DNA of 55,481 nt, taken from NCBI GenBank assembly GCA_018662825.1, contig JABJFI010000081.1, positions 1-55,481 of the forward strand, written 5' to 3'. How positions within the stretch are numbered: position 1 is the stretch's first letter; the number at the start of each line of letters is the position of its first letter. The notes under the pieces were generated by a model. It worked only from the letters and a program-made list of their open reading frames with translations, was not told the DNA's origin and made no database searches. The stretch comes from Methanobacteriota archaeon. Lineage in GTDB: Archaea > Thermoplasmatota > Poseidoniia > Poseidoniales > Poseidoniaceae. The position numbers and the translations under genes were made by a program. This document shows positions 4,497 through 55,481 of this stretch, piece by piece.

Positions 4497-4534
4497 GCGT
4501 TGAGTTCATCAAGCGGAACGACTTCGGGTCAATC

Positions 4535-4660
4535 ATGGAGAACACCGTTACATGCGTTTGCGGCGTAAAAATTGATGTTGCTGGAGCAACACCGAGAAAG
4601 GACGGAACCAAAGTTTGGTGCAAAGTTTGTGGAACGGTTTCTGTCCACCATCGAATGTGA
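4535..4660 (+). CDS. Small (41 aa) zinc-ribbon protein
   Basis: MENTVTCVCG...VWCKVCG contains two Cys pairs and fills the intergenic gap. Confidence 0.6.
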   Translation: MENTVTCVCGVKIDVAGATPRKDGTKVWCKVCGTVSVHHRM

Positions 4661-4670
4661 ATTATATTGT

Positions 4671-5570
4671 TCATTCTTCTTGTTCATCTATTCGATTTTC
4701 CTGTAATGCCGAAGTTCCAGGCTTTGCAGGGAAGAAAAACCACAGGACTGGAACAATGAACATAGCCGGAATATTTTTCCCATATTTTAAATCTAAATGT
4801 GAGTGGAATTCGACGAATGAACGTGCATCTGTATCATTTTCATCTGGAACATTCTCACGTAGCGCCGAATAATTTCCAGGTTCAACCAACCCTAAATCAT
4901 AGCCACTAAACATCATTTCAAAACGAACACCGGGCCAGATAATCGAATTTTCAACATTAGTTTTTTGATGTGCTATTGCTCCTTGTTCGGTTTTTACTAC
5001 AAACGTTTCATCGGCAAGAGAGTCTTGGTTCTCGGCGTTTTCCTCATCTACACCCCCTAAGTCAAGCACATAAGTCGCTGGTACAACAACAAGAAAACAC
5101 ACTACAACGCCTGCCAATATAGCAGCTCGAAAAGTTGTATGAAATGGAATTCCGGCGATGACCAAACATTCACTAATACAGAGAAAAACCAAAGCAGACA
5201 ATGTCAGTAACCTTCCGTTTTGCAACCAATCAAAATCTTCTTCAAGTTCCGAAGAGGGTTGTTGGGCGCCATTATTGGATGATGGAACACTTGAATTAGA
5301 TTGAGATGAATTAACCGGCTCATCATAATCACGGAATGCCATATACAATAAAAAAGAGGTAGAATTTTCCATTTCAACATCGATAAGCGTTTGTTCTTTA
5401 TCGATAGCAACAAGAGCCTTCACCTTAGTTGGTGCTGGTTGACCTTCTGTATATTGTCCTTCAAACTGAACAACAAGCCATGCTGAGAGAAATAGATGAA
5501 CAGCAATTAGTACAGTGCCAAGTAACCTGCAACCATCCCCTACACGGCTGTGTTGTGGTCGTAGGGCCAT
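4671..5570 (-). CDS. Hypothetical membrane protein
   Basis: 299-aa ORF with 3-4 hydrophobic segments. Confidence 0.65.
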   Translation of the reverse strand: MALRPQHSRVGDGCRLLGTVLIAVHLFLSAWLVVQFEGQYTEGQPAPTKVKALVAIDKEQTLIDVEMENSTSFLLYMAFRDYDEPVNSSQSNSSVPSSNNGAQQPSSELEEDFDWLQNGRLLTLSALVFLCISECLVIAGIPFHTTFRAAILAGVVVCFLVVVPATYVLDLGGVDEENAENQDSLADETFVVKTEQGAIAHQKTNVENSIIWPGVRFEMMFSGYDLGLVEPGNYSALRENVPDENDTDARSFVEFHSHLDLKYGKNIPAMFIVPVLWFFFPAKPGTSALQENRIDEQEE

Positions 5571-9344: not shown

Positions 9345-10487
9345 ATGGGCATGGTGCGAGTACTTGTAGTCGGTGCAGGCCTCGCAGGCCTATCTTGCGC
9401 TCTTGAAGCAACTATTGCAGGCCATCATGTGGTGGTGCTCGAACGCTCAACACGAATTGGAGGGCGAGGCACAACTCAGAACCTTGAATCGTTTCCAGTG
9501 GGATACGGCCCCCATCTTTTCCTCAAAAAGGGCCCCTTCCATAACCTTGTTCGAAAACTCAGTCGCGTCAAACTCGCCACTTCCCCTCTTCGCCTTCATC
9601 GAACCGAACTTATCGGACAAGGCATTATTAGGCCCCTTGAAGATGTTAAAACCTCAATTGTGAACAAGCGAATTTTACGCGACCCAAGTAGCACTCATCC
9701 TTTGGCAGAAGGATGCCATTTTCTTTCGTCTTGGGGCGGCCAAACCAATACGTTCCGTTACACAGGTCTTCAAAAGAACAATCTCTTGGTTTCAAATGAA
9801 GGGTGGGCTGGAATGGTGGGTCGGCTTGCAGCAGCTTTAGACGAAGTAGGTGTTTTTGTCGAATGCGGGCCGAATGTACAACGCATTGAACAGGGCAAAG
9901 CATTTCTTGTAGATGGCAGAGAGATCGAAACAGATGTTATTGTTCTCGCTTGCGGCCCTTCTGCAGCCAAAAAACTCGTTGGTACTATGGACGAGCAACG
10001 TTCCATCGATTTATTTTCACCCCTAAAGCGCATTTCAGCAAGTTTTCTTGAAGTGGGTTTGGATTCAAAATCACTTTCCGGTAAACACGCAGTTATCGAC
10101 TTACAGAGCCAATGTGCAATCCTCGATTATCGTGCCATACAACCGCGTCTTGGGCGTGAAGGAAGCCACCTTTCTGCTCTTGCCGTGGGCGGTCTTGATT
10201 CTGACCCTGGCGAAACAAGGTACGCTTCATCCGAAGAACGCCTTGCAACTCTCAAAACCTTTCTCGACCAAAGAGCCAGTGGTTGGCAAGAACATATCAT
10301 ACACCAATCCGAACAATCGAAAATCACTCTTCATGACGCGGGCCAATACCGTATCCCGCAACAGGCATTGGCCAATTCAGGCATACTTTTTGCAGGCCCT
10401 TGGGTTGAAGGGGACCACATCCTTGCAGACGCAGCCGTCGCTTCTGGCCGTTTAGCAGGGAGGAGTATTTCTTCAGTCAATACTTGA
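9345..10487 (+). CDS. FAD-dependent oxidoreductase (phytoene dehydrogenase/amine oxidase-like)
   Basis: N-terminal VVGAGLAG...LE..IGGR Rossmann motif; C-terminal AG.W...LADAAVASG. Confidence 0.8.
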   Translation: MGMVRVLVVGAGLAGLSCALEATIAGHHVVVLERSTRIGGRGTTQNLESFPVGYGPHLFLKKGPFHNLVRKLSRVKLATSPLRLHRTELIGQGIIRPLEDVKTSIVNKRILRDPSSTHPLAEGCHFLSSWGGQTNTFRYTGLQKNNLLVSNEGWAGMVGRLAAALDEVGVFVECGPNVQRIEQGKAFLVDGREIETDVIVLACGPSAAKKLVGTMDEQRSIDLFSPLKRISASFLEVGLDSKSLSGKHAVIDLQSQCAILDYRAIQPRLGREGSHLSALAVGGLDSDPGETRYASSEERLATLKTFLDQRASGWQEHIIHQSEQSKITLHDAGQYRIPQQALANSGILFAGPWVEGDHILADAAVASGRLAGRSISSVNT

Positions 10488-10519
10488 AGACTTATCCACT
10501 TCCGACTTTTGGCCAAACC

Positions 10520-35706: not shown

Positions 35707-35797
35707 CTTCACATTCAGAAAAACGGATAATATCACCATGCGTTATTGTTCTAGATAGGGGCAATCTAAACTCATGCCCTTGGGCACACCTGAACAG

Positions 35798-35871
35798 TGG
35801 GCGATGCAGGATTCGAACCCGCGTCGACGGGTTCGAAGCCCGTCAGGATATCCAGGCTACCCTAATCGCCC
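35798..35871 (-). tRNA. tRNA-Arg (anticodon TCG), no intron, CCA not encoded
   Basis: Reverse complement is GGGCGATTAGGGTAGCCTGGATATCCTGACGGGCTTCGAACCCGTCGACGCGGGTTCGAATCCTGCATCGCCCA. Acceptor stem GGGCGAT/ATCGCCC, anticodon loop CTTCGAA, T-loop TTCGAAT. Confidence 0.93.
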
Positions 35872-41465: not shown

Positions 41466-44138
41466 ATGCGCTTCGGTGTTCGAGGAACTTTGCCGGACCC
41501 AGACCCTGTTGCAACACAGGAATGGGTCGATTCAATCCTTGCTGTTCGTGACCAACTTGGTGATGAAGAGGCTCGCCGCCTATTACTTTCTACCGTTGAT
41601 GCAGCCCGCCATGCCGGTGTCGAAATCGATGTCGTCAATACCCCTTACCTCAATTCCATACACCCAGATAATCAAGGCACATATCCGGGTGATTTGGAAA
41701 TGGAAAAACGCCTCCATGGAATCATAAGATGGAATGCGATGATGGTTGTCACACGCGGCAACAAAAACTTCGATGGCATTGGAGGCCACATCTCGACTTA
41801 TGCTTCAGCATCTCATGCTTGGGAGATTGGCTTCAATCATTTCTTTCGAGGCAAAGATGGGTCTGGACAAGGCGACCATCTCTATTGGCAAGGTCACGCA
41901 TCTCCAGGAATTTACGCTCGAGCCTGGCTCGAAGGTCGTTTGACCCATGAGCAAATGGAAGCCTTTCGTCAAGAAACTGGCGGCAAGGGCTTGTCTTCAT
42001 ACCCACACCCCCGCCTCATGCCTGACTTCTGGGAATTTCCAACCGTCAGTATGGGGCTTGGCGCAATGACGGCCATTCATCAAGCTCGTTTCAATCGCTA
42101 TCTCGAGGACAGAGGTTTAGTTTCAACTGCAAACTCCCGTGTATGGTATACGATGGGTGATGGCGAATCTGACGAACCAGAATCACTGTCTCAACTTTCT
42201 CTTGCAGGACGTGAAGGACTTGACAACATTGTCATGACTCTAAACTGCAATTTACAACGCCTTGATGGGCCTGTTCGTGGCAACTCAAAGATTGTCCAAG
42301 AACTCGAAGGGCGGTTCCGTGGAGCAGGCTGGAATGTCATCAAAGTTCTCTGGGGCAGCAGTTGGGATGATTTGTTTGCTCGAGATTCCGCCGGCATTCT
42401 TGCTGCTCGTCTTGACGAATTGGTCGATGGCGATGAGCAGAGAATCGTAACTGCTGATGGAGCAACTATCCGCAAAGATTTGTTTAACTCTGATGGATTA
42501 CAAGCCCTCGTAGCCCACCTAAGTGATGATGAATTGGTCGATTTATGTGCTGATGTTGGAGGACATGATTTTGTTAAACTTCATGCTGCCTACGCTCAGG
42601 CGACAGCTCACAAAGGGCAACCAACTGTAGTTTTGATGCGCACCATCAAGGGATTTGGCCTTGGGCCAGCATTTGCAGGCCGCAATACAACCCATCAAAA
42701 GAAGAAGGCAGGAATGGAAAGCATGCAATACATGCGCGATGATTTAGGACTCGATTTTTCAGATAAAGATTTGGAAAAATATCCATACATCATGCCCGAA
42801 GATGTCCCTGAATTAGTTGCCTATGCTAAACAACGCCGCGCCGCCATGGATGGATTCATGCCATGCCGTGTTGTGCCAAAATTTGATTTGCCACTTCCAG
42901 AAGAAGCAACATATGCTGAATTTGATGAAGGCACCAAAGGAAAAATGCAAGTCTCAACCACCATGGCCTTTGTTCGAATTCTACGCGCTTTGATGAAAGA
43001 CAAAGAATTCGGCAAACGAATCGTACCAATCATCCCCGACGAAGCCCGAACTTTCGGAATGGACCCATTATTTGCTGAATTTGGAATCTACCATCCCGAG
43101 GGCCAACTCTACAAACCGGTTGACCACAAAGTGCTGATGAAGTACAAGGAATCAGCAAAAGGCCAACTCCTAGAAGAAGGCATTAACGAAGCCGGTGCCA
43201 CTTCAACGTTCATAGCCGCAGCAACCTCTTTTGCCACTCACCACTACCCAACCATCCCCTTCTATACCTTCTATTCGATGTTCGGATTCCAACGCGTGGC
43301 AGACCTCATTTGGTCTGCGGCCGACCAACGTGCTCGAGGTTTCCTAATGGGTGCAACCTCTGGACGAACCACGCTCAACGGTGAAGGATTGCAACATCAA
43401 GATGGCCACTCACTTCTGATGGCTCACACCAATCCAGCTGTTCGCGCCTGGGACCCGGCTTTTGCTTACGAATTAGCAACCATCATTCGGCATGGCATCG
43501 ATGAAATGTATGGGCAAGACAAGGATGTCATCCACTATATTGCCGTTTACAATGAGAATTATCCTATGCCTCCAAAGCCACAAGGTGTTGACCAAGGCAT
43601 TATTCGCGGCATGTATTTGCTACGGGGTGCGCCAAAGGGAGATGGACCAATCGTTCGCCTAATAGGGTCAGGGCCAATTATGGTTCAAGTATTGGATGCA
43701 GTCGAGAAACTCGAAACTTACGGAGTTCGTTCTGAAATTTATTCAGCCACTTCCTATGGAGAATTACGTAGAGAAGGTATGGAATGCGACCGATGGAATC
43801 GATTGCATCCAACAAAAACAGCCAAGCAACCATGGGTTGAACAAATGCTTGGAAATGCAGAAGTTCCAGTCATTGCCGTCAGCGATAACATGGCAGCAGT
43901 CCCTGATATGATCCGTCAATGGGTCACAGGCCACTATACTGTCTTAGGAACTGATGGATTTGGCCGCTCTGATACTCGAGAAGCACTTCGCAGGTTCTTT
44001 GAAATCGATGGGGCAGCAGTTGCACTTGCAGCGCTCTCCTCCCTTGTAAGAGATGGTTCAATTGAGGCAAGTATATACGAGAAGGCTGAGAAAGAATTCG
44101 GAATTTCTTCTGAACGTAAAGACATTACTGCACTTTGA
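41466..44138 (+). CDS. aceE: Pyruvate dehydrogenase E1, homodimeric AceE type
   Basis: GGHISTYAS, QGHASPG, FPTVSMGLG, TPP motif GDGESDEPES and EGLQHQDG. SD GGAGGAG upstream. Confidence 0.95.
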   Translation: MRFGVRGTLPDPDPVATQEWVDSILAVRDQLGDEEARRLLLSTVDAARHAGVEIDVVNTPYLNSIHPDNQGTYPGDLEMEKRLHGIIRWNAMMVVTRGNKNFDGIGGHISTYASASHAWEIGFNHFFRGKDGSGQGDHLYWQGHASPGIYARAWLEGRLTHEQMEAFRQETGGKGLSSYPHPRLMPDFWEFPTVSMGLGAMTAIHQARFNRYLEDRGLVSTANSRVWYTMGDGESDEPESLSQLSLAGREGLDNIVMTLNCNLQRLDGPVRGNSKIVQELEGRFRGAGWNVIKVLWGSSWDDLFARDSAGILAARLDELVDGDEQRIVTADGATIRKDLFNSDGLQALVAHLSDDELVDLCADVGGHDFVKLHAAYAQATAHKGQPTVVLMRTIKGFGLGPAFAGRNTTHQKKKAGMESMQYMRDDLGLDFSDKDLEKYPYIMPEDVPELVAYAKQRRAAMDGFMPCRVVPKFDLPLPEEATYAEFDEGTKGKMQVSTTMAFVRILRALMKDKEFGKRIVPIIPDEARTFGMDPLFAEFGIYHPEGQLYKPVDHKVLMKYKESAKGQLLEEGINEAGATSTFIAAATSFATHHYPTIPFYTFYSMFGFQRVADLIWSAADQRARGFLMGATSGRTTLNGEGLQHQDGHSLLMAHTNPAVRAWDPAFAYELATIIRHGIDEMYGQDKDVIHYIAVYNENYPMPPKPQGVDQGIIRGMYLLRGAPKGDGPIVRLIGSGPIMVQVLDAVEKLETYGVRSEIYSATSYGELRREGMECDRWNRLHPTKTAKQPWVEQMLGNAEVPVIAVSDNMAAVPDMIRQWVTGHYTVLGTDGFGRSDTREALRRFFEIDGAAVALAALSSLVRDGSIEASIYEKAEKEFGISSERKDITAL

Positions 44139-44276
44139 TACTGAGGCCATTCACACGACCTCCGTTGTTTCAAATGAGGGTCCTTGAAATGTACAGCAGT
44201 TGAGATAGAACAATCCAATTCAAGTCAATTTAGGGGTGGAGTTCTTGAAGGGGCCGCGCTTGGATTAACTGATACC

Positions 44277-44876
44277 ATGTCTGAATCGCCAGCGAAGAAA
44301 TCATTTCTCCGAATGTGGGTAATGAGGCAATATTGGCGAATGCAACAATCACAAGCAATTGTAAGTCTGTTACTTTGGGGGACTACAATCACACTATTGG
44401 TATGGCCATTGATTTCTTGGAGATTCTCAGCAAGCTGTAATTCGGAACTTTGCTTTTCGGACCATATAGCAGGTATTCCAAGCGCTTACATTGGACTTAC
44501 TGTGATTTTCTTTTCAGTTATGTTTGTGGTATTATCTATAGGTTTTCTTTATGATCAAGTATTTTCCCTATGGACTGAGTGGCGAAATGTCGATATGGAA
44601 CGCAACCCCTTTGCGACCTACGCTCTTGCCCCGATATGGGTTATGTCTATCGCTTTGCAAGCAGAAATTTTGAAACGAACTTCTTCACAAGATGAGGAAA
44701 TCATTGAGCAAGCAAACTGGTGCCTTAAGTGGTGTGAAACATATACAGAAGGTGAAATGTTTGCACGTGCGGTACAAAAATGGGACAAAGACCTTGGAGA
44801 AACCCCAACCTTTTGGTTTACTTCTGATGAAGCAATGCAGCGGGCACGAGAAGTAATAATTTCCGATGAAGCTTGA
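44277..44876 (+). CDS. Hypothetical two-TM membrane protein
   Basis: QYWR.QQSQ and G..YD....LW......ERNPF patterns. Confidence 0.65.
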   Translation: MSESPAKKSFLRMWVMRQYWRMQQSQAIVSLLLWGTTITLLVWPLISWRFSASCNSELCFSDHIAGIPSAYIGLTVIFFSVMFVVLSIGFLYDQVFSLWTEWRNVDMERNPFATYALAPIWVMSIALQAEILKRTSSQDEEIIEQANWCLKWCETYTEGEMFARAVQKWDKDLGETPTFWFTSDEAMQRAREVIISDEA

Positions 44877-44898
44877 ATCCATAGCCGCTCAAATTGGC

Positions 44899-45750
44899 TT
44901 ATTGCGCAAAACCTAATTTATGCATAAGCATTTTTTGTTTTCTTCGCAATCGTTGGAAGAAGCTTCCAGCGATATACTTCTTCCATTCTTTGGGAACAGC
45001 ATCGCGACTCTTTTGAAGGTCTTTGGTTTCTAGCCAAACACCATAATCCAAGTAAATATTTTCTCGCCCATTGACACAAACTGCATGTAATGGAACATGT
45101 GTATTGCTAAATGTTTGTAAAGAAGGGATTTGAGATGGGTCTATCAAATCTTCACGAATAAAAAACGCATCATGATGTTTAGCAGTGGAATAGCATCCAG
45201 CATACACCAATGAATATCCGTGATTTTCGGCCATCATCGTTAGTGCTTTGAGTGAAGAACCCATTACACGGTCCATATGCCAAAACTCATCCTTATCGTT
45301 TGGGAAGGCCATCGCTGCATCAATTGGGAAATTAGGATTAAATTCAACGCTGAAGAAACTCGGGCGATAATTTTTCAACAGTGCATCGGTTACCCAAATA
45401 TCGGTTGAGTCTAAGTCGATGGAAATATATCCCGGTTCAATCGGGACATTATATTGCTGAAAAAGTTCACAGATATTTTCACTTGTAATGAAATGGCGGT
45501 ACAAATTAATGTCTGGATTATGGCAGTTTCCATCCATAAGGAGATAGTCCCATTTTCGTTGATGAACCAAGTATTTGGTGTTTGGTTGGCAATCATCCCA
45601 ACTGGTTGAATCATAACCAAATTCAATACAATATTTGTTACTGATTTCAATATTTTCACAGATGAAATCAACCACGCCGTCTTGCATCCCTTGGGATGAA
45701 TGGCGTGCTTCATGCTCTGATATCATCGAAATCCAATTCTGTTGAGTCAT
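44899..45750 (-). CDS. FkbM-like methyltransferase
   Basis: SQ..QDG, IEFG, IT.ENI, SIDLD..D.W, VEFN and G.SL.AL....GY.LV motifs. Confidence 0.7.
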   Translation of the reverse strand: MTQQNWISMISEHEARHSSQGMQDGVVDFICENIEISNKYCIEFGYDSTSWDDCQPNTKYLVHQRKWDYLLMDGNCHNPDINLYRHFITSENICELFQQYNVPIEPGYISIDLDSTDIWVTDALLKNYRPSFFSVEFNPNFPIDAAMAFPNDKDEFWHMDRVMGSSLKALTMMAENHGYSLVYAGCYSTAKHHDAFFIREDLIDPSQIPSLQTFSNTHVPLHAVCVNGRENIYLDYGVWLETKDLQKSRDAVPKEWKKYIAGSFFQRLRRKQKMLMHKLGFAQ

Positions 45751-45887
45751 AATCTCACCCCATTTGTAAAGGTGTATGGTTTATGAAATATATGTTCGCA
45801 TTGTGCGAGTCTTGTATGGGCTGACAAACAAATCACCAATATGTATGAGTCCTATTCATTATTGTCTAATAATGCTTGAAGCAACTA

Positions 45888-46775
45888 TTATGTTCGATAT
45901 CCCGCGAGTCGTTCTAATTCAACAATTCGTCTTAGTGTCGAAGGTTGGAACGTTGCTTTGATCTGCTGGTCGTTTTGCCCCTCAAAAACATTGGTTGCAT
46001 TCAAGGAGGTTGTTTGGGTGCCTGGAATGACATCGAAATGTAAACTCTCTTGAGCAACTTGGGAAATTGGAATTTTATTTTCAATTGCAAGGTAAGTCAA
46101 CCAAAGGTCATCATTTCGTGGACACGTTTCTCGAAATCCTTGGCCAACTTCGCGCATTAGTTGAAGAAATTCTGGTGGGAAAAGAACACCTGAGACACAT
46201 GTTGCAAAATTGAGATTGCTGGGGCCTCCCAAACCAGGTGGCCATGAATCGTATGGGGTCAAACTCATTTCATCATCTGCAACAACCATCCGGTGAGCCC
46301 GATAAGCGTGGATACTTGTTGAGTCAGAGGTAAAGCACGCGTTCAGACGCTTTAGCCACCAGCGCGGGTAAAGTATGTCATCATCGGCAACAACGTGGGG
46401 GGCTGAAAATGAAGGAGCATTGACAATCCAAGGTTGAATCTTAGTGTGGGGGCCGAGATTTTCTGAAAGGTGTATTTCCAAACCTCTTTTTTGTAGTCGT
46501 TGTAGAGTTTTCAGCGGATTAATGACATGGTCTTCCACATCCAGGTGAAGCATTAAACGCGATGGTTTGAGGGTGCCTCGTGCAATGCTTTCTATTGCTA
46601 AGAATACACCCTTGAGGCGGTGGCCATGTGTTGTCAATGAAAGAGTTGGACCGCCTTCCTCAATAATCGAAGTGCGTGAATAACGGTTGCGAAGGCGTAG
46701 ACGAAAAATGGAGAGATGTATTGGAATATTCCGAACAATATTTGCCGCGAAAGCCAAAGGATTGATTCGTGCCAT
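45888..46775 (-). CDS. GT-A fold glycosyltransferase
   Basis: SLTT...RL, GPHTK, ADDDILYP (DxD), GVLFPP and DDLW motifs. Confidence 0.75.
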   Translation of the reverse strand: MARINPLAFAANIVRNIPIHLSIFRLRLRNRYSRTSIIEEGGPTLSLTTHGHRLKGVFLAIESIARGTLKPSRLMLHLDVEDHVINPLKTLQRLQKRGLEIHLSENLGPHTKIQPWIVNAPSFSAPHVVADDDILYPRWWLKRLNACFTSDSTSIHAYRAHRMVVADDEMSLTPYDSWPPGLGGPSNLNFATCVSGVLFPPEFLQLMREVGQGFRETCPRNDDLWLTYLAIENKIPISQVAQESLHFDVIPGTQTTSLNATNVFEGQNDQQIKATFQPSTLRRIVELERLAGYRT

Positions 46776-46870
46776 TATTCCACCGTAAAATCAAACCTAA
46801 TCATTATGCCCTTCGACAAGACCGGCTCTGCTGTGATTCGTGCTATGGGTTTGGCTTAACGAATACTTCG

Positions 46871-46916
46871 GTCTGCTCCAATACCCTTTGTGTATTCTTA
46901 ACAGTTGTAAAGGGTA
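46871..46916. repeat. Intergenic element copy 1 (inverted 11-bp arms, 13-bp spacer)
   Basis: TACCCTTTGTG (46882-46892), N13, TGTAAAGGGTA (46906-46916). Confidence 0.7.
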
Positions 46917-46955
46917 GTCACAATGACGCATACATGCATATGGGGGCCCTTGCGT

Positions 46956-47110
46956 TCAAAATTTTCCATCCTTCTTGCGTTTACTCTTGTATTGCATCAT
47001 CAGACCACAATCACGGCACATCCAGTGTTCAATCCGCATCAATCCAAGCATTTGCATTGGGATTTGACAAACGACATTAGGGGATTACATTCAGGACAGG
47101 CCTTACTCAT
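46956..47110 (-). pseudogene. Possible frameshifted small zinc-ribbon gene
   Basis: MSKACPECNP in one frame and ...EHWMCRDCG...KF* in another; one extra C in the CCCC run would join them. Confidence 0.35.
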
Positions 47111-47199
47111 TCTCATAAACAAGCGATTCCTTTCAAATGCATAAACCGATCTATCCAATTACCATATACAGATAATTTGCAGGGTCTATACGAATAGAT

Positions 47200-47298
47200 T
47201 CACTCTTCTTTGAGTACTTTCCAAATGAAATAGGCTCCAATGAAAACTCCCACAAGTAAACCCAACACGGCGCCGATTGAAATGCTAGGTGCTGCCAT
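47200..47298 (-). CDS. 32-aa single-TM microprotein (missing from ORF track)
   Basis: MAAPSISIGAVLGLLVGVFIGAYFIWKVLKEE, with a TTATAC TATA-like box just over 20 nt upstream. Confidence 0.6.
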   Translation of the reverse strand: MAAPSISIGAVLGLLVGVFIGAYFIWKVLKEE

Positions 47299-47386
47299 GA
47301 TTCTTCGATGGATGAATTCGGTATAACATTATTGTTCACTATTCGGGCAGGGGCCCTATTTATCGCCTGCATTATATTCGCTAGGG

Positions 47387-47422
47387 ACTGCCAACCCGTC
47401 TTGGCAGTGGGGCCCCCTTTGC
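47387..47422. repeat. Hairpin plus back-to-back copies of the intergenic motif
   Basis: Perfect 8-bp stem ACTGCCAA-cccgtc-TTGGCAGT, overlapping GCAGTGGGG-CCCCCTTTGC. Confidence 0.5.
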
Positions 47423-47466
47423 TCTAGCACCGAAGGATTGGTTAAATTGAACTGATACGAGAGAGT

Positions 47467-48630
47467 ATGTCTGACCCATCTATTAGTTCGGATGGATACT
47501 GGAAATTTATTGATGGGGAATGGACTGCAACTGAAAAACAAATCTCTGCTTTGGAGAAAGGAGCCAGACCTCATGATTTTGTTGAAATCTCAAAAAGGAA
47601 TCCTGAGGTATTTCAAATTATATCACTTAGATTGAAGCAGATCGCTCTAAACTCCAGAAATAAATGTGGAGAGTTCAGTCTAGTTCTCAAAAATAAATAT
47701 TCAAATCTCCAGCGAGACCAAAAATTACAGCTTCTTACCGGCGTTGGTGTGGTTTCTGTTGCTTTGATCGTAATACTAATAATCGCATCTCTTTCTATTG
47801 TCATGAATAATCAGACTCCACCGCTAAACTGTTCGTCAGAAAATCGTGATGATAGAGATGATACATGTCCAATTGAAATTGCATCATGGAATCTAAATCG
47901 GTTTGGTCGTTCCTCGGCAGAAAATGATACGATACGAGGTGAAATGGCCGAGAAGATTAGTAATTACGATATTATTGCGGTCCAAGAAATCAAAGATAAT
48001 CAGTATATAGCCCCCTATCTCTTGCAAGAAGAAATTTCTGAAATTTCTGAATATGGTATGATTCTGTCTAACCGTACTGGAAGTTTTTGCGAGGAAAAGT
48101 CAAGTTCTCAAATCTCAGAACAGTACGCCTTTTATTATGATATTTCAATTTTAAAACCCCTCGGGAACTATCAACATTATCCAAATACAGACTGCGATTT
48201 TGCAAGAGAACCATTCGCAGGACAATTTCAATCATTAAAATCAGATTATACTTTTGTGCTTATTACATTACATGTGAAGCCAGACGACGCATTGAATGAG
48301 ATTTCATCATTGGAGAAAGTTTTCGAGTGGGCTAAATTTCAATATCCAAATGAGGATGATTTCATTTTACTCGGTGATTTGAATGCTGGTTGTGATTATG
48401 CAACATCTTCAGACCTCGATGAACTTGATATTAGAAATGAAGATTATATTTGGATTATACCTGATAATATCAAGACAAATACTGCCGAATCACGTTCATG
48501 TGCTTATGATCGAATAATATTGGAAGATATTGAATCTAGTGAGTATCTGAAATCTTACTCAACCGATTGTCAAATCGCAGTCTCTGATCATTGTATTATT
48601 TCAGCGGAATTCTCTAAGTCGGAGTCTTGA
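47467..48630 (+). CDS. Membrane-anchored DNase I-like (EEP superfamily) nuclease
   Basis: TM helix followed by IASWNL..FG, YDIIAVQEIKD, EQYAF.Y, FAREPF, LH..P, LGDLNAGC.Y, CAYDRI and SDH motifs. Confidence 0.88.
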   Translation: MSDPSISSDGYWKFIDGEWTATEKQISALEKGARPHDFVEISKRNPEVFQIISLRLKQIALNSRNKCGEFSLVLKNKYSNLQRDQKLQLLTGVGVVSVALIVILIIASLSIVMNNQTPPLNCSSENRDDRDDTCPIEIASWNLNRFGRSSAENDTIRGEMAEKISNYDIIAVQEIKDNQYIAPYLLQEEISEISEYGMILSNRTGSFCEEKSSSQISEQYAFYYDISILKPLGNYQHYPNTDCDFAREPFAGQFQSLKSDYTFVLITLHVKPDDALNEISSLEKVFEWAKFQYPNEDDFILLGDLNAGCDYATSSDLDELDIRNEDYIWIIPDNIKTNTAESRSCAYDRIILEDIESSEYLKSYSTDCQIAVSDHCIISAEFSKSES

Positions 48631-48685
48631 TGTTTAGTAGACATCATTTTCGACTAATCGATGATATAATCGTTTTAGGGACTTA

Positions 48686-48803
48686 TCAAAGGGTCTATCC
48701 GAATACCCATTGTTCAGAAGTTGGTAAATTAGAGGGCTCGCAGTGGGTCTTGTCAGACACTACCCTCGGTATGGACGGGTATACAGTGGGAATACAGAGG
48801 GTC
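48686..48803. repeat. Intergenic element copy 2
   Basis: TACCCATTGTT, N13, ATTAGAGGGCT, then CGCAGTGGGTC. Also TACCCTCGGTA, N10, TACAGTGGGAA, TACAGAGGGTC. Confidence 0.8.
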
Positions 48804-48873
48804 TCCTAACAATTCAAATCATACCACTCGTGCCGGGCTAAGGATTATACATAGCTAATTCTCGCTGAGAAAT

Positions 48874-49527
48874 ATGGTCGAGGTTGAGTGCCCGTTATGC
48901 TCCGAGACAGTAGACCTAGGCAGTGATTCAACAGGGACTTATGAGTGTCCATACTGTGAGGGCGATTTTGAGTATGAAAGTTCAACTAGCCTGGCCTTAA
49001 ATGACACAAATCTAAAACGAGGATTGTTAAAACAAATGAATAACCCAAGGGAAACTAGTCAACGTTTGACTCAAAAAAAATTAGAAAAAATAGTACTACC
49101 TATATTCATGGTGATTTTCACTGTAGCTTTTCTTGTACTGGTTTTCGTCTACATGGGAGTGAGTGGTTGGGAGGAAACCGAAGGTGAGATTATTTCTTCA
49201 TATTCTACTGATTCGGAACTAACTGAATATCAATACACATTCAAGGTAGATGGTGAAACATTTAACGGAAGCGATGAATGTCATTCCCGCGGTGGAGGAG
49301 GGGATGAACAAAACTGTGAAAGTTATGACATTGGTGATGCTGTAATGATCTCATATAATCCTGGAAATCCAAATGAAAACGAGATGGTAGATAATCAATT
49401 ACCATCAATCTTCTTATGTTTCTTTTCATTACCAGTTATACTATTGGGTTTGACTTTATATTCAAAATTTAGAGATAGTAGCAACCTTGAAGGCACCCAT
49501 GTACAAATCGACTCGGATAAGTTGTAA
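48874..49527 (+). CDS. Membrane protein with N-terminal zinc ribbon and DUF3592-like domain
   Basis: CPLC...CPYC, a TM helix, W.ETEGEII, YQYTFKVDG, G..V.I.YNP.NP and a second TM helix. Confidence 0.75.
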   Translation: MVEVECPLCSETVDLGSDSTGTYECPYCEGDFEYESSTSLALNDTNLKRGLLKQMNNPRETSQRLTQKKLEKIVLPIFMVIFTVAFLVLVFVYMGVSGWEETEGEIISSYSTDSELTEYQYTFKVDGETFNGSDECHSRGGGGDEQNCESYDIGDAVMISYNPGNPNENEMVDNQLPSIFLCFFSLPVILLGLTLYSKFRDSSNLEGTHVQIDSDKL

Positions 49528-49694
49528 GGGGTCATCCGAAACCCCTTTGCATTTTTCTTTCCGGTACAAAGGGGATCCAGTGGGTCGATACAGACGCTAG
49601 CGAGTGTATTGGGGGACTAAACACCCATTGTACTCCTTCACAATGTCTTGAGGGGTCTGAGGAAACCCACGCAACTTCATGGAAATGATATGTC
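49528..49694. repeat. Intergenic element copy 3 (symmetric double element)
   Basis: ACCCCTTTGCA-N13-TACAAAGGGGA and CACCCATTGTA-N13-TCTTGAGGGGT lie symmetrically about CGCTAGCG (49595-49602). Confidence 0.85.
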
Positions 49695-49767
49695 GTTAGT
49701 ATGTACTGGAAAGGCCGTTTTGCTCCTTTTCCGATTATATTTTATGGCCAGTCAACAACCGACCTAC

Positions 49768-52700
49768 ATGAAGGCTAAATTAGCGACAGGTATGATTTTG
49801 ATTTTCCTATTTCAAATAGCGTCAGTTTTACCAGAAGTTGATCGATTAAGTGACTTTCAAACAGAGAGTAGATCTCAGATAAATAGCCCACAGGGGGTAA
49901 ATGATACATCCTTTGTATCTATGTCAGCACGTTCTTTTCAGTATGAGGATCATAAAGGAGATAGTAAAGAATTTGGAAATTCTTTGATTGTTATGCAACA
50001 GACAATATGGAATGGAGGGGCAGGTCCGCAATTCAACGGAAATCAGGTTTGCCCTTCTTCACTTACTTATGCACAATGTACTCATAGTTTATTGATAATT
50101 AATTACTCATCTAACACTTTAATAGCCCATATTTATGCAACTACAGAATTACATTTTGATACCTTTGAGAATTCATTGCATATATCTACACTAACTGCTG
50201 GGACAGGACAAAATGCAATGAACGTAATTTGGCCAATTCAGAGCCCTGTTAGAAATTATAGTGGACCTGGAGTCTATGTTTTTAATCAAGACGGCATTTT
50301 GTCTTCAAACACAACGAATACTATTTCCAATAAGTGGCCAGGTTATTTCACCCCTTCAACAGTTATGGGAGACACTTCTACATACACCTGTAAGCTCAAT
50401 TCGATAGTTGCTGTATCTGATTATAGTAATATATTACAACGAACATGTTGGTTTCAAGGTGGGATTGTTGCAGGACCTAGTGCAGGAACAAAACATTTCA
50501 ATTTCACAAATTCTACAGACTTTCAAAACATCACCGTTATCGGTGATAGAAGTCATGGCTATACAACAACATATCTTTTAGTAATTACACAAAAATTCAC
50601 TAATGATACAATAGAATGGACACATCCTCGCTTGTTAATGCAAGGCGCTTCAACGGCCTGTTCAACAGGATATCATAGTAGTAACAGTCCTTTATCAACC
50701 CCATATTCCATATCAACTGGGAACAACAACACATATGTATCCACATTTTGGAGCACAATATCTAGTTGTGGTTGGATTGGTACTGTGGACGTAAATAATG
50801 CCACTGAGTTTTACAGATATTCGAGTTCCTATTCTTTCGGTCAATCAGCCTTGACAATGTCTCTGAATATTTCAACAGGGCAAGAGAATTGGAAAAAAAG
50901 AATGGGTTTTTATCCTATTGACGGAAATGAAATATTACTTACAGATAATGATTTGATATTCTGTGGATCAACTCATTCCTATAGTCAAGGTTTTGTTTTG
51001 AATCAAGCAAGTTTGAACATGGGGTCGATAGGAATAGTTAGAATTAACTCAAGCACTGGAGATTATATCAGCCATGCATCGCTTCTTGGTTCTGGAACAG
51101 TTCATGGGTGTGGTAATTCTGATTCTAGCGGCAATGACGCTTTTTTAGTGATGCAAGGAGTATCGTACTTGAATGGACAATATTCTGCTTCTACTGCAAT
51201 CACATTAGTTAAATTAGATAGGCAGAATAATTTCAATCATGTTTACACTATATCGAATGCCGATTTCGGTGATTTCAATATAGATGAAAGAGCTATAATC
51301 ATTACAAATCCAGAAAATGTAAATTATGGTTCAGGTTCAATGGCAGGTGGAGATGGTCTTGGAATATTTTACTTACAAGATGATTATGACCAAGATAATC
51401 AAGCAGACAATATTGATTCTGATGACGACAATGACGGTTATCTCGATGTCAACGATAACTGCCCCAGAGGAATGATGGACTGGACACCAGGTTCTTCTAC
51501 AGACGGCGATTCTGATGGTTGTCACTTTAGTGAGGATTTAGACAATGACAATGATGGAATAGACGACTCATTAGATAATTGCGATTCTCCTGCAAACTCA
51601 TTCACTTCTACACCCATTACAGATTATGATGGAGACGGATGTAGAGATTCCACTGAAGACTACGATGATGACAATGATAACATTCTAGACATAAACGATA
51701 ATTGTATTAAGAGTGTGAATAATTCTGATGTTGCAACAAATGATACAGATTCTGATGGCTGTGGAGATTCCGTTGAGGACTCTGATGATGATAATGATGG
51801 CGTATTTGATGTGAATGACCAGTGTCAAACCTATCCAAATACCTGGCAATCTTCATCCAATACAGACCACGATAGCGATGGTTGTAAGGATTCGATAGAA
51901 GACGATGATGATGACAACGATGGCATCAATGACAATTTGGATAGTTGCTCTACTGGTAAGATTGGGTGGATACCTACTACTGAAAATGACGGTGATTCTG
52001 ATGGTTGTTACGATGCTAATGAAGACATAGATGACGACAATGATGGAGTTACTGACAGCGCAGATGCTTGTCCAAAACAAGCGGGAGATTCTTCGTTTGG
52101 CTCTTTACTAGGTTGCCCAGATACAGATCAAGATGGTTATGGAGACAATATCGATTCCTGTCAATCTGAATATGGTACAAGCTTTAGAGACGTATATGGT
52201 TGCCCAGATTCAGATGGTGATGGATACAGTGATTCTGGCGATGATTTCCCTAACGATGCATCTGCTCATTCAGACAGCGATAGCGATGGGGTTGAGGATT
52301 CAATAGATGAATTCCCGTTCCTTCCAGGCCAATGGTTGGATAATGACGGCGACGGATATGGTGATAATCCAACTGGTCCTACCCCAGATTCTTGTGTTGA
52401 AACATATGGAAATTCAACTAGAGATATTTACGGGTGTCTTGATTCTGATGGCGACGGATATAGCGACATAAATGACAAATTCCCTAATGACAAATCAAAA
52501 TGGCTAGATACTGATAATGATGGAGTTGAGGATTCTGATGATGATTTCCCATTAGATCCATCACAGCAAACAGATTCTGATGGCGATGGCTCAGGCGATA
52601 ACCCAACAGGAGTTGGGGCAGACAAGTTCCCCAATGACAGCACTCAATGGTCAGATATCGATGGAGATAGTTACGGCGATAACCCCAATGGTACAAATCC

Positions 52701-53658
52701 TGATGCATTCATTACTGATTCAACCCAGTGGTCTGATGCAGATGGTGATGGTTATGGAGATAATCCAACTGGAAGGTTGTATGACCAATTCCCGCAAAAC
52801 CCTACTCAATGGGTAGACGATGACGGTGACGGATTGGGTGACAATCTGAACGGTACTGACGCAGATCCATACCTCAATGACTTCGACAATGATGGATACA
52901 ATGACAGCATCGACATCTTACCGAAACTACCATCTCCTGGTGATTTAGATGCCGATGGTTGTCTGGATGAAGACGATGCTTTCCCTTCCAACTCTCAAGA
53001 GTGTTTGGACAATGACGGTGATGGCGAAGGCGACAATGCTGACGTTGATGATGACAATGATGGTTGGGCGGATACTGATGAAATTCGGCTAGGTACTGAC
53101 CCATTCAATTCTGCTGAAGAGCCAGTGGAATCATTCGAGATTGTGATTCCCGGAACTTCTGTTGGTCTAGGTGCTTGGGATTTGATTGGAATGTTTGGTG
53201 GTATTCCGCTATTCGTTTGGATTGGATTTGGATTTGTAACTCGCAATACTCGATGTGCAAAATACGAAACAATGCTTCGTGAAGCGAACACTCGAGACGA
53301 GTTAGAATCAGTGGCTTACAAATGGGAATACTCGCTTATGCTTCGAATGCTAGGTCCTCACCAAGGAATTCGATTAGAACGCTTACGAGCTGAATTAGAT
53401 GATAAGTTTGAGGCTATGGCCCAACCACTCTCTTCTATTGACAATCATGAATTCGACCAGACCCAAATGGTGGTTGAAGAAATGAATGATACAGAAAAAC
53501 AAGTTCCAGAATTAGTTACACAGAGTGATTACCCTTCAATCGAAGATACAGCGCAGAAAACAGACGATAATGGATATGAATGGTTCACCGCTCAAGATGG
53601 GACTAATTTCTACAGAACAATTGGCTCTCAAGCAGATTGGATAAAGTTAGAAAATTGA
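49768..53658 (+). CDS. Large membrane-anchored protein with many thrombospondin type-3-like (DxDxDG) Ca-binding repeats
   Basis: Signal peptide MKAKLA..., an S/T/N-rich N-terminal domain, many DxDxDG repeats, a TM helix and a Trp-containing C-terminal module. TATA-like TTATATTTTAT upstream of ATG 49768. Confidence 0.85.
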   Translation: MKAKLATGMILIFLFQIASVLPEVDRLSDFQTESRSQINSPQGVNDTSFVSMSARSFQYEDHKGDSKEFGNSLIVMQQTIWNGGAGPQFNGNQVCPSSLTYAQCTHSLLIINYSSNTLIAHIYATTELHFDTFENSLHISTLTAGTGQNAMNVIWPIQSPVRNYSGPGVYVFNQDGILSSNTTNTISNKWPGYFTPSTVMGDTSTYTCKLNSIVAVSDYSNILQRTCWFQGGIVAGPSAGTKHFNFTNSTDFQNITVIGDRSHGYTTTYLLVITQKFTNDTIEWTHPRLLMQGASTACSTGYHSSNSPLSTPYSISTGNNNTYVSTFWSTISSCGWIGTVDVNNATEFYRYSSSYSFGQSALTMSLNISTGQENWKKRMGFYPIDGNEILLTDNDLIFCGSTHSYSQGFVLNQASLNMGSIGIVRINSSTGDYISHASLLGSGTVHGCGNSDSSGNDAFLVMQGVSYLNGQYSASTAITLVKLDRQNNFNHVYTISNADFGDFNIDERAIIITNPENVNYGSGSMAGGDGLGIFYLQDDYDQDNQADNIDSDDDNDGYLDVNDNCPRGMMDWTPGSSTDGDSDGCHFSEDLDNDNDGIDDSLDNCDSPANSFTSTPITDYDGDGCRDSTEDYDDDNDNILDINDNCIKSVNNSDVATNDTDSDGCGDSVEDSDDDNDGVFDVNDQCQTYPNTWQSSSNTDHDSDGCKDSIEDDDDDNDGINDNLDSCSTGKIGWIPTTENDGDSDGCYDANEDIDDDNDGVTDSADACPKQAGDSSFGSLLGCPDTDQDGYGDNIDSCQSEYGTSFRDVYGCPDSDGDGYSDSGDDFPNDASAHSDSDSDGVEDSIDEFPFLPGQWLDNDGDGYGDNPTGPTPDSCVETYGNSTRDIYGCLDSDGDGYSDINDKFPNDKSKWLDTDNDGVEDSDDDFPLDPSQQTDSDGDGSGDNPTGVGADKFPNDSTQWSDIDGDSYGDNPNGTNPDAFITDSTQWSDADGDGYGDNPTGRLYDQFPQNPTQWVDDDGDGLGDNLNGTDADPYLNDFDNDGYNDSIDILPKLPSPGDLDADGCLDEDDAFPSNSQECLDNDGDGEGDNADVDDDNDGWADTDEIRLGTDPFNSAEEPVESFEIVIPGTSVGLGAWDLIGMFGGIPLFVWIGFGFVTRNTRCAKYETMLREANTRDELESVAYKWEYSLMLRMLGPHQGIRLERLRAELDDKFEAMAQPLSSIDNHEFDQTQMVVEEMNDTEKQVPELVTQSDYPSIEDTAQKTDDNGYEWFTAQDGTNFYRTIGSQADWIKLEN

Positions 53659-53670
53659 TTCAGAGCCCTA

Positions 53671-53750
53671 GCGATACCCTCTGTATAGGCGTATCATGAG
53701 TGGGTACCGACGCGTGGAATGTCGGTACAAAGGGTATCGCGTGGGGTGAT
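53671..53750. repeat. Intergenic element copy 4
   Basis: GCGATACCCTCTGTA and TACAAAGGGTATCGC are 14/15 complementary; inner hairpin GTACCGAC/GTCGGTAC. Confidence 0.85.
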
Positions 53751-53806
53751 TTTAGGCATTAGTATTTGATGTAAGCACTATTGGGAAGAATAGAGAGAGA
53801 CGTATT

Positions 53807-54097
53807 ATGACAAAGACAACGAAGAAGAAAATCATCTCATTCTCATTGATAATATTTGGAATACTTGTACTCATTACAGGGATTATGATGATTCAAACTG
53901 GATTCGCAACCTTTGATGACGACGAACCTAGAGTTTGGCTCTACATTGGAGGTATTTTTACAATAATTGGAGGCGTTTTCTTGACAGTTGGTGGAATGAT
54001 ATATCTTAACTTCGAGCGTTTGAAAAAGAAGGCACTTAGTACAGCTGGCAAGATTGCTGATGCTGTTGAAGAAGAGAGAATACAAGACAAAAAGTGA
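53807..54097 (+). CDS. Small two-TM membrane protein
   Basis: 96 aa with two hydrophobic helices and charged termini. Confidence 0.7.
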   Translation: MTKTTKKKIISFSLIIFGILVLITGIMMIQTGFATFDDDEPRVWLYIGGIFTIIGGVFLTVGGMIYLNFERLKKKALSTAGKIADAVEEERIQDKK

Positions 54098-54148
54098 TGC
54101 CTTCGTTAGAAGATAATACAACTCAAGTAGGGTCTCATACAGTCAACT

Positions 54149-54280
54149 GACATATCATTTCCACGAAATCGCAAGGGTTCTTCCAAACCCCTCAAGACAT
54201 TATGGATGAGTACAGTGGGTGTTCAGTCCACCAGTATACTGCCTACCGTTTGAAACTATGGTGTGTGGAAGGGCCCTTTG
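54149..54280. repeat. Intergenic element copy 5 (inverted copy of 49603-49694)
   Basis: ACCCCTCAAGA-N13-TACAGTGGGTG. 74/92 identity to the reverse complement of 49603-49694. AAGGGCCCTT palindrome at 54269-54278. Confidence 0.85.
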
Positions 54281-54408
54281 AAACGGAATCTAATTTGATT
54301 CGATTTCTGTTCGAAACGCTTCGATAATCAACACACTCAATCATCTTACCTTTTCCAATACTGAATGTCGGAGTTCAAAATATATACTTAACAACATTAC
54401 GAGAAAAC

Positions 54409-55481
54409 ATGGCAGCCACTGATCTTGGATTGATTGGTGCAATTTTGATGATTGCAGTAGGCGCAATGACGCTTTATTTTGTAAGGAATAATAAAAAATT
54501 GATGTGGAATCAACGTCTCGGCGCACATATTATTTGTTGGTTATTTCTTGCCAAGGGAATCGGTAGTGCCGCTGCTTCATTCTTGATTGCAGATGGTGTT
54601 TTGTTCGATTCTGGAGGATATTGGCAATTTACTTTCTCCTTACTTTGGCTGATGGACATCCTCTTCACTACCGGAATGCTTGGATTATGTTTGGTATTCC
54701 CCATACCGATTCTGCGTAATAAGAAACATCTAAAAATAGCATTTACCGCAATAGCAGTATTCACCGCCTATAGGATAATACTCTTCATGGTAGGCTTTGG
54801 AGTTACAATACTGGAATTGAGCGGAATTACATATCTTATTTGTGGTATTGTTTGGGGCACTGTGTATATTCGATTCCGTTTAGCGCCAGTGGAAAAAAGA
54901 AACCAGAGTACTGAGAATATCGCCTTGGCTGCTGGTCTATTATTGATTTTCCATCTTGGACACATCTGGTTTTCATGGCCAGGATTAATATTGCGTGCCG
55001 AATATTTCTATAACTTAGACCTCATGGATGGAATTTCTCATCGTTCAGTTGAATATTTTTGGCAAGCTTGTTATGCATTTTCGATTGGACTTGGGATGAT
55101 GCTATGCGCTATTGAAGTCAAACAATTAGTCAATGGTAGGGCAAATCAGTTTACATATGCAATGATTACATATTTCACACTTGGATTCATTGGATATACC
55201 ATCTTATCGTCTGCTTCCGACGCTTTCTGGTGGGCTTCTGGAGAACAAACACTTGCACAGATTTGGATTACCCTTACTTCATCGATGCACTTTACAATCC
55301 TTCGACCACTAATTGGAATGTATGTACTGTTAAGGTTTGGATTATTTGATACAAGTGAAGATATGAAACCGAAAGCAAAGATGATGGTAATTATATTGAT
55401 TGTAATAGCAACATCTGCCCTGCTTGAATTAGTTCAAGCCATTGTTCCAATGAATGAAATGCTTTCAGCCGCACTTCTTGG
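54409..55481 (+). CDS. Polytopic membrane protein, 3' truncated by window (missing from ORF track)
   Basis: Open frame MAATDLGLIGAILMIAVG... to the window end, about 10 TM helices. AAAATATATA TATA-like box at 54377-54386. Confidence 0.8.
   Translation, partial: MAATDLGLIGAILMIAVGAMTLYFVRNNKKLMWNQRLGAHIICWLFLAKGIGSAAASFLIADGVLFDSGGYWQFTFSLLWLMDILFTTGMLGLCLVFPIPILRNKKHLKIAFTAIAVFTAYRIILFMVGFGVTILELSGITYLICGIVWGTVYIRFRLAPVEKRNQSTENIALAAGLLLIFHLGHIWFSWPGLILRAEYFYNLDLMDGISHRSVEYFWQACYAFSIGLGMMLCAIEVKQLVNGRANQFTYAMITYFTLGFIGYTILSSASDAFWWASGEQTLAQIWITLTSSMHFTILRPLIGMYVLLRFGLFDTSEDMKPKAKMMVIILIVIATSALLELVQAIVPMNEMLSAALL

Follow-up and report, generated by a model that had tools for sequence, protein, structure and literature searches.

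The window analyzed here is the full 55,481 nt of contig JABJFI010000081.1, from a genome of the archaeal family Poseidoniaceae (order Poseidoniales; assembly GCA_018662825.1). Past position 44139 it carries an island in which unrelated genes alternate with copies of an intergenic repeat of ~105 nt, hereafter the element, which was detected with a sequence-only model named R1. The element probably serves as the recombination site that closes mobile gene cassettes at their 3' end, with a family of serine recombinases of ~262 amino acids (aa) as its likely enzyme. In our reading, the window comprises at least four cassettes in an array that lacks a recombinase gene.

Core synteny with six relatives (78–79% identity) ended at 44139, the end of an 890-aa gene (41466–44138). 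The G+C content was 0.375–0.43 past 44 kb versus 0.44–0.49 earlier, in agreement with the AT-richer stretch described in an earlier note made from the window sequence. Five of the seven relatives' contigs fetched (G018:C3, G003:C8, G045:C12, G061:C1, and G068:C61) ended 0.5–1.5 kb past the end of synteny, which suggests that, in several species, the chromosomal place after the 890-aa gene is occupied by a variable island that assembles poorly. The 71 kb downstream of the orthologue of the 890-aa gene in relatives contained no elements, a comparison in which those five contigs end shortly past synteny. The features of the island are as follows.

44139–46881: island start with three genes (44184–44876, plus strand; 44899–45750, minus strand; 45888–46775, minus strand), free of R1 matches and with no Pfam family in any of the genes
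46871–46919, plus strand: short weak element copy (R1 13.9 bits, E 0.0047, model positions 26–74)
47467–48630, plus strand: DNase I-like endonuclease/exonuclease/phosphatase protein, 387 aa (PF03372, E 4.7e-09)
48669–48762, plus strand: element of a third subfamily, ending …GACACTA at 48762 (R1 68.2 bits, E 5.8e-20)
48763–48806, plus strand: putative 5' half-site of the next cassette, CCCTCGGTA…TACAGTGGGAA TACAGAGGGTC (three motif matches)
48874–49527, plus strand: Zn-ribbon/DUF3592 membrane protein, 217 aa (PF12158, E 4.6e-08)
49505–49599, plus strand: element of subfamily S1, ending …GACGCTA at 49599 (R1 78.9 bits, E 2.6e-23)
49598–49691, minus strand: inverted element of subfamily S2 (R1 54.7 bits)
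49745–53658, plus strand: large surface protein with thrombospondin type 3 (TSP3) repeats (PF02412, E 3.1e-4, and PF18884, E 3.6e-3, both below cut-off)
53666–53745, no strand: short palindromic junction labelled IGR4, GATACCCTCTGTA…GGTACC…TACAAAGGGTATC (40+40-nt inverted repeat; fold z = -5.55)
53807–54097, plus strand: small DUF308-like membrane protein, 96 aa (PF03729, E 9.3e-06)
54152–54245, plus strand: element of subfamily S2, ending …CTGCCTA at 54245 (R1 56.7 bits, E 2.2e-16)
54246–54290, plus strand: putative 5' half belonging to the unit that follows, consisting of CCGTTTG… and the palindrome GGAAGGGCCCTTTG (read from the sequence)
54409–55481, plus strand: multi-pass membrane protein running off the contig end (open reading frame open at its 3' end; no Pfam family)

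The gene descriptions of the earlier note agreed with Pfam for the Exo_endo_phos, DUF3592, TSP_3 (below the Pfam cut-off), and DUF308 families. The note had also placed an 11-bp motif, TACCCWYTGTA, in every gap between these genes. Searched with at most one mismatch over the whole window, the motif had 11 matches, of which 10 fell at 46882–54221 and one at 14485; in 100 shuffles, the mean was 1.89 and the maximum 5, and none reached 11. At least one match was present in each of the five intergenic gaps of the 46.9–54.2 kb stretch. As the genome-wide count was 108 in 1.96 Mb, this stretch is the densest motif cluster of the genome, and the motif was not common in core intergenic DNA or in shuffled sequence. 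The motif-array observation was confirmed. The five inverted motif pairs of the note were read in the sequence at their reported positions, but two of the five second arms were weak (48728–48738 and 49646–49656, with ~5 of 11 bases complementary by eye). The fixed 13-nt spacing was also present, although the pairs do not represent independent sites. Searches with BLAST and iterated nhmmer identified the motif as one block of the element, copies of which lie in the gaps, and the spacing is constant because the pairs descend from one ancestral copy. The GGGTC-ATCCGAA leader flanking the pairs corresponded to the first conserved block of the element.

The element consensus is caAGGGTyt-aTCCgAA-aCCCctttg, 13–17 variable nt, tACAAaGGG-ttgCAGTGGGTC, ~10 variable nt, and CTAcc, with the blocks 9–17 nt apart. 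Iterated nhmmer yielded ~20 copies in this genome, all between open reading frames (ORFs) and many near contig ends. R1 matched 37 of the 41 genomes of the order, with 1–26 matches per genome and 26 in this one; matches were found in all 24 other genomes of the genus, one of two in family f2, and 11 of 14 in family f3. Copies clustered at gene-sized spacing in genomes of few contigs, and seven were located within 10 kb of G020:C3. Tail-to-tail pairs recurred, and both strands were used within arrays. An exact 22-mer of the element was found in 89 stretches among 185,579 species genomes; among the matches listed, nearly all records were titled Poseidoniales, Poseidoniaceae, Thalassarchaeaceae, or older names of such metagenome-assembled genomes (MAGs). 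The sole clearly non-archaeal carrier among the matches listed was L127, a 2-kb contig in a MAG titled Opitutia bacterium, which is most likely mis-binned Poseidoniales DNA. Two exact element patterns had no matches among viral contigs.

Repetitive extragenic palindromic (REP) sequences and bacterial interspersed mosaic elements (BIME) are intergenic imperfect palindromes near gene 3' ends, associated with REP-associated tyrosine transposases (RAYT; Y1 type) and often alternating in orientation. The element resembles them in being intergenic, imperfectly palindromic, close to gene 3' ends, and often alternating in orientation. It could be taken for a selfish repeat of the REP, BIME, or MITE (miniature inverted-repeat transposable element) kind, with homologous recombination between copies reshuffling the neighbouring genes, an explanation that we consider unlikely. 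The dispersed low-copy pattern between genes, the imperfect dyad symmetry, the mixed orientation, the position often near gene 3' ends, the many copies at contig ends, and a summed depth 10–50x higher over element bins are consistent with it. However, neither the Y1 transposase (PF01797; 6 genomes searched, with matches of the search controls in 6 of 14 genomes) nor the TnpB TNB domain (one genome searched) was found, and the element differs from REP and BIME further in its low copy number, asymmetric breakpoints, and coupling to a serine recombinase. The terminal inverted repeats expected of a MITE were not seen when the ends were read by eye, neither end being an inverted copy of the other. 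The subfamilies were ~90% identical across species and far more diverged from each other inside one genome, whereas a recent within-genome burst predicts the opposite. Elements were 77–93% identical across species, compared with 66–79% for flanking core DNA.

A co-oriented ORF preceded 73 of 127 elements, its end a median of 26 nt away; a cruder count gave 36 of 59, with a median of 18 nt from the stop codon. A structured RNA transcribed with the upstream gene (a small RNA, an element of the 3' untranslated region, or a terminator hairpin) would account for the 36 of 59 elements that lie downstream of co-oriented genes, and the IGR4 fold (z = -5.55) and the T-rich loop of S1 point in the same direction. 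We nevertheless regard it as very unlikely. Rfam 15 had no matches at E up to 1 in 44000–55481, five of six folds had |z| <1, RNAalifold predicted 7 pairs at -2.6 kcal/mol, and the elements occur in both orientations relative to genes. The helices proposed in the earlier note were not maintained across copies (62.2% of cells paired versus 64.5 +/- 1.6 in shuffles); 476 of 500 shuffles paired at least as well, and there was no covariation.

The genes that accompany the elements share little. Those upstream of one element subfamily were mutually unrelated, and few of 69 cargo proteins had any one family in common; their Pfam families included HxlR, PhoU, TSP3, DUF3592, DUF308, pentapeptide, aldo-keto reductase, and MBOAT. 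No recombinase family was present among the 25 Pfam families listed for these 69 proteins. Separately, the cargo at G020:C3 (locus L030) was found to include a GmrSD-like DUF262 plus HNH nuclease (3838–5109, minus strand) and a DUF4357 protein (9567–10517, minus strand), and defence genes therefore travel in arrays. A module of zinc alcohol dehydrogenase and an HxlR-type regulator followed by an S2 element was observed in 9 genomes at 91–99.6% identity, twice in G020 (loci L030 5895–7676, L031, L057, L081, and L073). A conserved gene flanking the arrays was considered and rejected, as the commonest ORF clusters near elements, with Pfam run on part of the clusters, were the annotated cargo (zinc alcohol dehydrogenase, HxlR, TSP3-like, and DUF3592).

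Breakpoints were mapped in a comparison set of 66 loci from 25 genomes (677 kb), using common segments of at least 300 nt and at least 88% identity (range 88–99.6%). The genomes had 29 such segments in common, with 108 ends away from locus edges. Of these ends, 32 were within 25 nt of the CTA of an element (1.1 expected by chance and at most 7 in 1000 randomisations), and only 4 were near an element 5' end; the 32 ends are non-independent and correspond to about a dozen distinct boundaries. The remaining 76 ends were elsewhere, and several long segments of 88–89% identity resemble ordinary conserved genes. Among boundaries away from R1, 8 of 33 were at ACC[CG] in both partners, compared with ~4% of random positions. 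Read base by base, cassette ends were common to both partners through CTA plus 0–4 nt, and cassette starts had the form (GG)(TA)CCC. The same pattern was observed in metagenome contigs, where 29 element pairs were at least 93% identical over the 100 nt up to CTA and 22 of the 29 were <50% identical just beyond it. In the 22 diverging pairs, identity was 98.4% in the last 20 nt versus 34% at +4 to +24, and the identical run past CTA was 0–4 nt long in 21. The bases following CTA in 119 distinct elements were mainly CCC (45), CCG (22), and GCG (18), the GCG class being mostly the tail-to-tail form, a palindrome centred on TA. Cassette ends, and several starts too, include this TA. A 5' half of the CC…ACAWGGGG-CCCCWTGT type, like the one at 54246–54290, comes after many elements elsewhere.

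The asymmetry of the ends also bears on the selfish-repeat explanation, as an independently mobile repeat would break at both ends rather than at 32 versus 4, and the DNA past CTA is unrelated in the partners, leaving no homology for homologous recombination. An assembly or binning artefact, in which repeats of co-occurring species join unrelated DNA, is a very improbable explanation of these boundaries. Nearly all the sequences are metagenome assemblies, the ~100-nt repeat is 90–100% identical across species, and contigs often end there; wrong joins, however, would hit both repeat edges, contrary to the 32 versus 4 observed. Furthermore, the junctions at 48669–48772 and 54152–54255 were bridged by contigs of other studies with 0–1 differences, and the pattern held in genomes of 1–10 contigs as well as in 80 contigs of a different collection. 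Wrong joins are possible for single cases.

Cassettes were more similar between genomes than one conserved core gene, which was 79–83% identical across the compared pairs. G016 and G020 had cassettes that were 99.4% and 99.55% identical, with 83.4% for the core gene, and the cassettes of G003 and G018 were 98.5% identical, with 82.5% for the same gene. The arrays of G003 and G020 had their outer cassettes in common and differed in the inner ones. To judge from such alignments, cassettes have probably been exchanged horizontally between species.

The window shows the same boundaries. The three-gene block at the island start was found elsewhere, in G007:C165 (87%) and G068:C94, and the G068 homology stopped at 46881/46882, directly before the ACCC of the first motif; this breakpoint coincides with the weak element copy, which includes the pair TACCCTTTGTG-13 nt-TGTAAAGGGTA at 46882–46916. 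The DNase I-like gene had 69% nucleotide matches in G001, G062, and G072. The element that follows it was bridged by an independent contig (X13 record 11, 48304–48892, 1 difference). The DUF3592 cassette (48763–49584) was 89% identical to G063:C18:9307–10128 in a context that differed on both sides, the homology beginning exactly at 48763; the flanking core DNA of G063 was ~71% identical. The last ~23 nt and the stop codon of the DUF3592 gene lie inside the S1 element, near-identical copies of which are present in many species. This S1 copy and the inverted S2 copy are joined tail to tail with a common central TA at 49598–49599, the putative cut coordinates being 49599 (plus) and 49598 (minus). 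A 115-nt inverted repeat, 77% complementary (49591–49705 with 54138–54252), encloses the TSP3 and small membrane-protein genes. The TSP3 ORF is open from 49648, and the ATG at 49745 is a guessed start; paralogues of this gene adjoin elements on C11, C90, and C122. The next cassette begins at ~53701 within IGR4, and homology to G014:C34 and G007:C259 begins at its GGTACC (~53697–53703). The DUF308 cassette (53697–54250), which starts with GGTACC and ends with CTACC, was 89–98% identical to G014 and G007. Their homology ends at the element 54152–54245, which was bridged by an independent contig (X10 record 8, 53965–55273, 1 difference). Contigs from RNA runs matched portions of the TSP3 gene and of the gene at the contig end, and carry no information on the elements. 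An apparent skip in contigs from 48712 to 49567 is another element copy with its own loop, and the remaining joints were in the TSP3 repeats.

Resolvase-family genes (PF00239) were found in 11 of the 41 genomes and were of two types. Type I includes a gene of this genome (G000:C30:1136–1987, minus strand; locus L186), which encodes 283 aa and has no element beside it. The type I gene was 86–98% identical in G000, G019, G008, and G005, with unrelated upstream DNA after ~20 common bases, and may itself be mobile with a site of its own, as far as the aligned sequences indicate. Type II, of ~262 aa, had an element beside it, with the gene divergent from the element 5' end, at three places in G014 and also in G009; G020 and G004 carried weaker copies. 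In public data, this family amounted to at least 501 protein clusters, most of them on contigs of 1–5 kb, which would explain its under-representation in binned genomes. Type II proteins matched PF00239 at E 2e-30 to 3e-32 and had the start of the 'Recombinase' domain, and the AY.RVSS..Q and DR.FR motifs were invariant across the family. The nearest solved proteins were TP901-1 integrase, Gin invertase, and the catalytic domains of gamma-delta/Tn3 resolvase.

We retrieved 80 metagenome loci encoding type II recombinases, in which R1 had 101 matches in 317 kb; 64 of the loci had at least 300 nt upstream of the gene. A divergent element was present in 33 of these 64, its 5' end 63 nt (6 loci), 169–176 nt (23 loci), or 288–306 nt (4 loci) from the start codon, and none of the loci had an element in the opposite orientation; all 52 nearest upstream elements were divergent. 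In the 171-nt class, the gap was filled by a second, degenerate element-like copy. Contig groups with near-identical recombinase and element diverged directly after CTA. In the ~300-nt class (L212, L216, L221, and L248), a conserved ORF of ~75 aa was observed between the recombinase and the element, transcribed away from the recombinase; its product could be an accessory factor.

The fixed distance between the element and the recombinase promoter is also what autoregulation would produce. The element could be a regulatory protein-binding site only (an operator or terminator), with the cassettes moving by other means and the breakpoints marking conserved intergenic punctuation, which we consider improbable. 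Conservation in sequence blocks rather than pairing and the median position 18–26 nt after stop codons agree with this possibility. It gives no reason, however, for identity ending within 0–4 nt of one position in 21 of 22 pairs or for identical recombinase–element units joined to different DNA, and the adjacent protein retains its catalytic serine motif.

A classical integron array (attC sites without an integrase) or a set of Xer/dif modules is extremely unlikely. Such systems also have cassette-like units with a site at the 3' end, and PF00589 searches revealed one Xer-like tyrosine recombinase per genome (G000:C118 and five relatives). These genes were far from the arrays, with none in the window, and the join is CTA|CC, not the G|TTRRRY of integrons, with mixed site orientation. 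An Xer/dif site has 28 bp, consisting of two 11-bp arms and a 6-bp spacer, and the sites here, ~105 nt long and made up of several blocks, do not fit this 11-6-11 pattern. The portion of PMC9668308 consulted reports integrons in archaeal MAGs, but its main text names neither Poseidoniales nor Thermoplasmatota.

For the recombination-site reading, the evidence would fit the following model. A cassette would start with CC(C)…, continue through a 5' half-site of ~45 nt and a promoter into its cargo of one to a few genes, and terminate in an element ending …GCTA. Neighbouring cassettes would be joined at CTA|CC, and two elements joined tail to tail would form a palindrome centred on TA. Where a recombinase gene is present, it would be divergent beside the element 5' end, and the crossover end would therefore be distal to the gene. 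We infer that the type II recombinase cuts at the element CTA and autoregulates its own gene, and that cassettes excise as circles; the crossover would involve a 2-bp TA stagger. Recombination itself is likewise deduced from sequence comparison.

The earlier note had proposed a cassette system analogous to the integron, with its own non-attC sites, genes carrying their own promoters, and a recombinase encoded elsewhere. This core proposal was supported: the gene content of relatives changed with breakpoints falling at elements, and a recombinase gene was coupled to the element in other contigs. Neither of the two outcomes that the note had named as refuting its proposal was obtained. The candidate recombinase is of the serine type rather than the tyrosine type, the alignments place the crossover at the element 3' end (…CTA|CC) and not in the 13-bp spacers, and element orientation is mixed, unlike that of attC arrays. 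Our assessment is evenly balanced as to whether this is an archaeal counterpart of the integron, in which a serine recombinase inserts, excises, and inverts cassettes at CTA|CC in res-like sites, drawing on a pool common to species and even families that encodes surface, defence, and metabolic genes.

Several observations weigh against the recombination-site reading. The contigs matching the window revealed no recombination event, circle junction, or empty site, and 14 DNA runs from 9 named studies (three rows without a study) contained the island almost complete; shuffling is therefore not fast. PF00239 had no match in the 16 genomes from other families, though 12 of these carry elements, and this 92%-complete genome has no type II recombinase, only the element-free type I gene on C30. 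No element was within 320 nt of the gene start in 31 of the 64 metagenome loci, and a co-oriented upstream ORF was present for only 36 of 59 elements (73 of 127 in the second count). The crossover at TA was read from alignments in which not every junction is dyad-symmetric and many are asymmetric. Gene calls were crude ORFs, and most sequences were metagenome assemblies, in which repeats can cause wrong joins.

If the integron comparison holds, the likeness covers several traits. Integrons, including clusters of attC sites lacking integron-integrases (CALINs), are also arrays of short, unrelated, mostly single-gene cassettes, each ending in a recombination site. The join is likewise at a fixed base inside the site, so that a cassette begins with the site tail, and a primary site with varying first cassettes lies divergent to the recombinase gene, as attI beside intI. 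Many arrays in both systems are enzyme-less, and cassettes are common across species. The differences are that integrons use the IntI tyrosine recombinase and structure-defined attC sites, whereas the candidate here is a serine recombinase and the ~105-nt element is block-conserved, occurs in both orientations, and forms tail-to-tail dimers. The cassettes here also appear to carry their own promoters, and the hosts are archaea of one order.

In Tn3, the tnpR gene is located beside the res site, whose crossover end is distal to the gene. Tn3 and gamma-delta thus resemble the present system in having a small serine recombinase gene beside a multi-part site of ~100–120 bp with a gene-distal crossover end, inverted half-site-like blocks at varied spacings, and TA at the centre of the symmetric form. 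Unlike them, the present system had no transposase or transposon, its sites are scattered through arrays at cassette ends, its protein is longer (~262 aa) with the start of a 'Recombinase' domain, and its sub-sites are putative. The dif modules of Acinetobacter plasmids, as described in the available portions of two papers, use 28-bp pdif sites and the host tyrosine recombinases XerC/XerD (PMC6449649, PMC13141974). By those portions, they are also accessory-gene modules bounded by short sites, in varied order and orientation, exchanged between replicons, and with no dedicated enzyme gene per array; the present system differs in its ~105-nt chromosomal sites and linked serine recombinase.

No description of the element or cassette system was found in the main texts of the literature searched (without supplementary tables). 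Marine Group II archaea, which are uncultured, rank with the most abundant surface-ocean microbes. A dedicated cassette system in them would, to our knowledge, be the first platform of many cassettes to run on a serine recombinase and, if true, would mean that the integron principle had arisen twice independently. Such a system would account for the breaking of assemblies at Marine Group II islands, for the spread of surface and defence genes from one species to another, and for the very large family of short recombinase contigs in marine metagenomes. The element and enzyme are small and could serve as a recombination tool.

Other candidates were tried and rejected. Integration linked to a tRNA gene was set aside, as the only tRNA of the window (35797–35871) is 8 kb before the island. 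Viral carriage was likewise rejected, with the element patterns not found in viral contigs and the closest viral relatives of the type II recombinase at most 42% identical. Searches for Y2_Tnp and Helitron_like_N had matches in 0 of 5 genomes with the controls also silent, so that they carry little weight. Tan1, an abundant non-coding RNA of Marine Group II, has 229 nt and is not described as multi-copy in the part of its report consulted (PMC5069720), with which the element was compared by description only. Charybdis elements are 4.6-kb circles that integrate beside tRNA genes and, by the portion of their description consulted (PMC12324425), are unrelated to the element system.

Two further observations concern the window. 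Two 73-aa ORFs without a Pfam match (46923–47144, plus strand, and 47151–47372, minus strand) lie between the weak element and the DNase-like gene, together with GGGGCCC-type palindromes at ~46942–46952, 47351–47357, and 47409–47418; this region may hold genes or decayed junctions. At 51500–53100, contigs from four runs had many skips and alternative joins in the TSP3 repeats, which suggests that the surface protein varies in repeat number or allele in natural populations.

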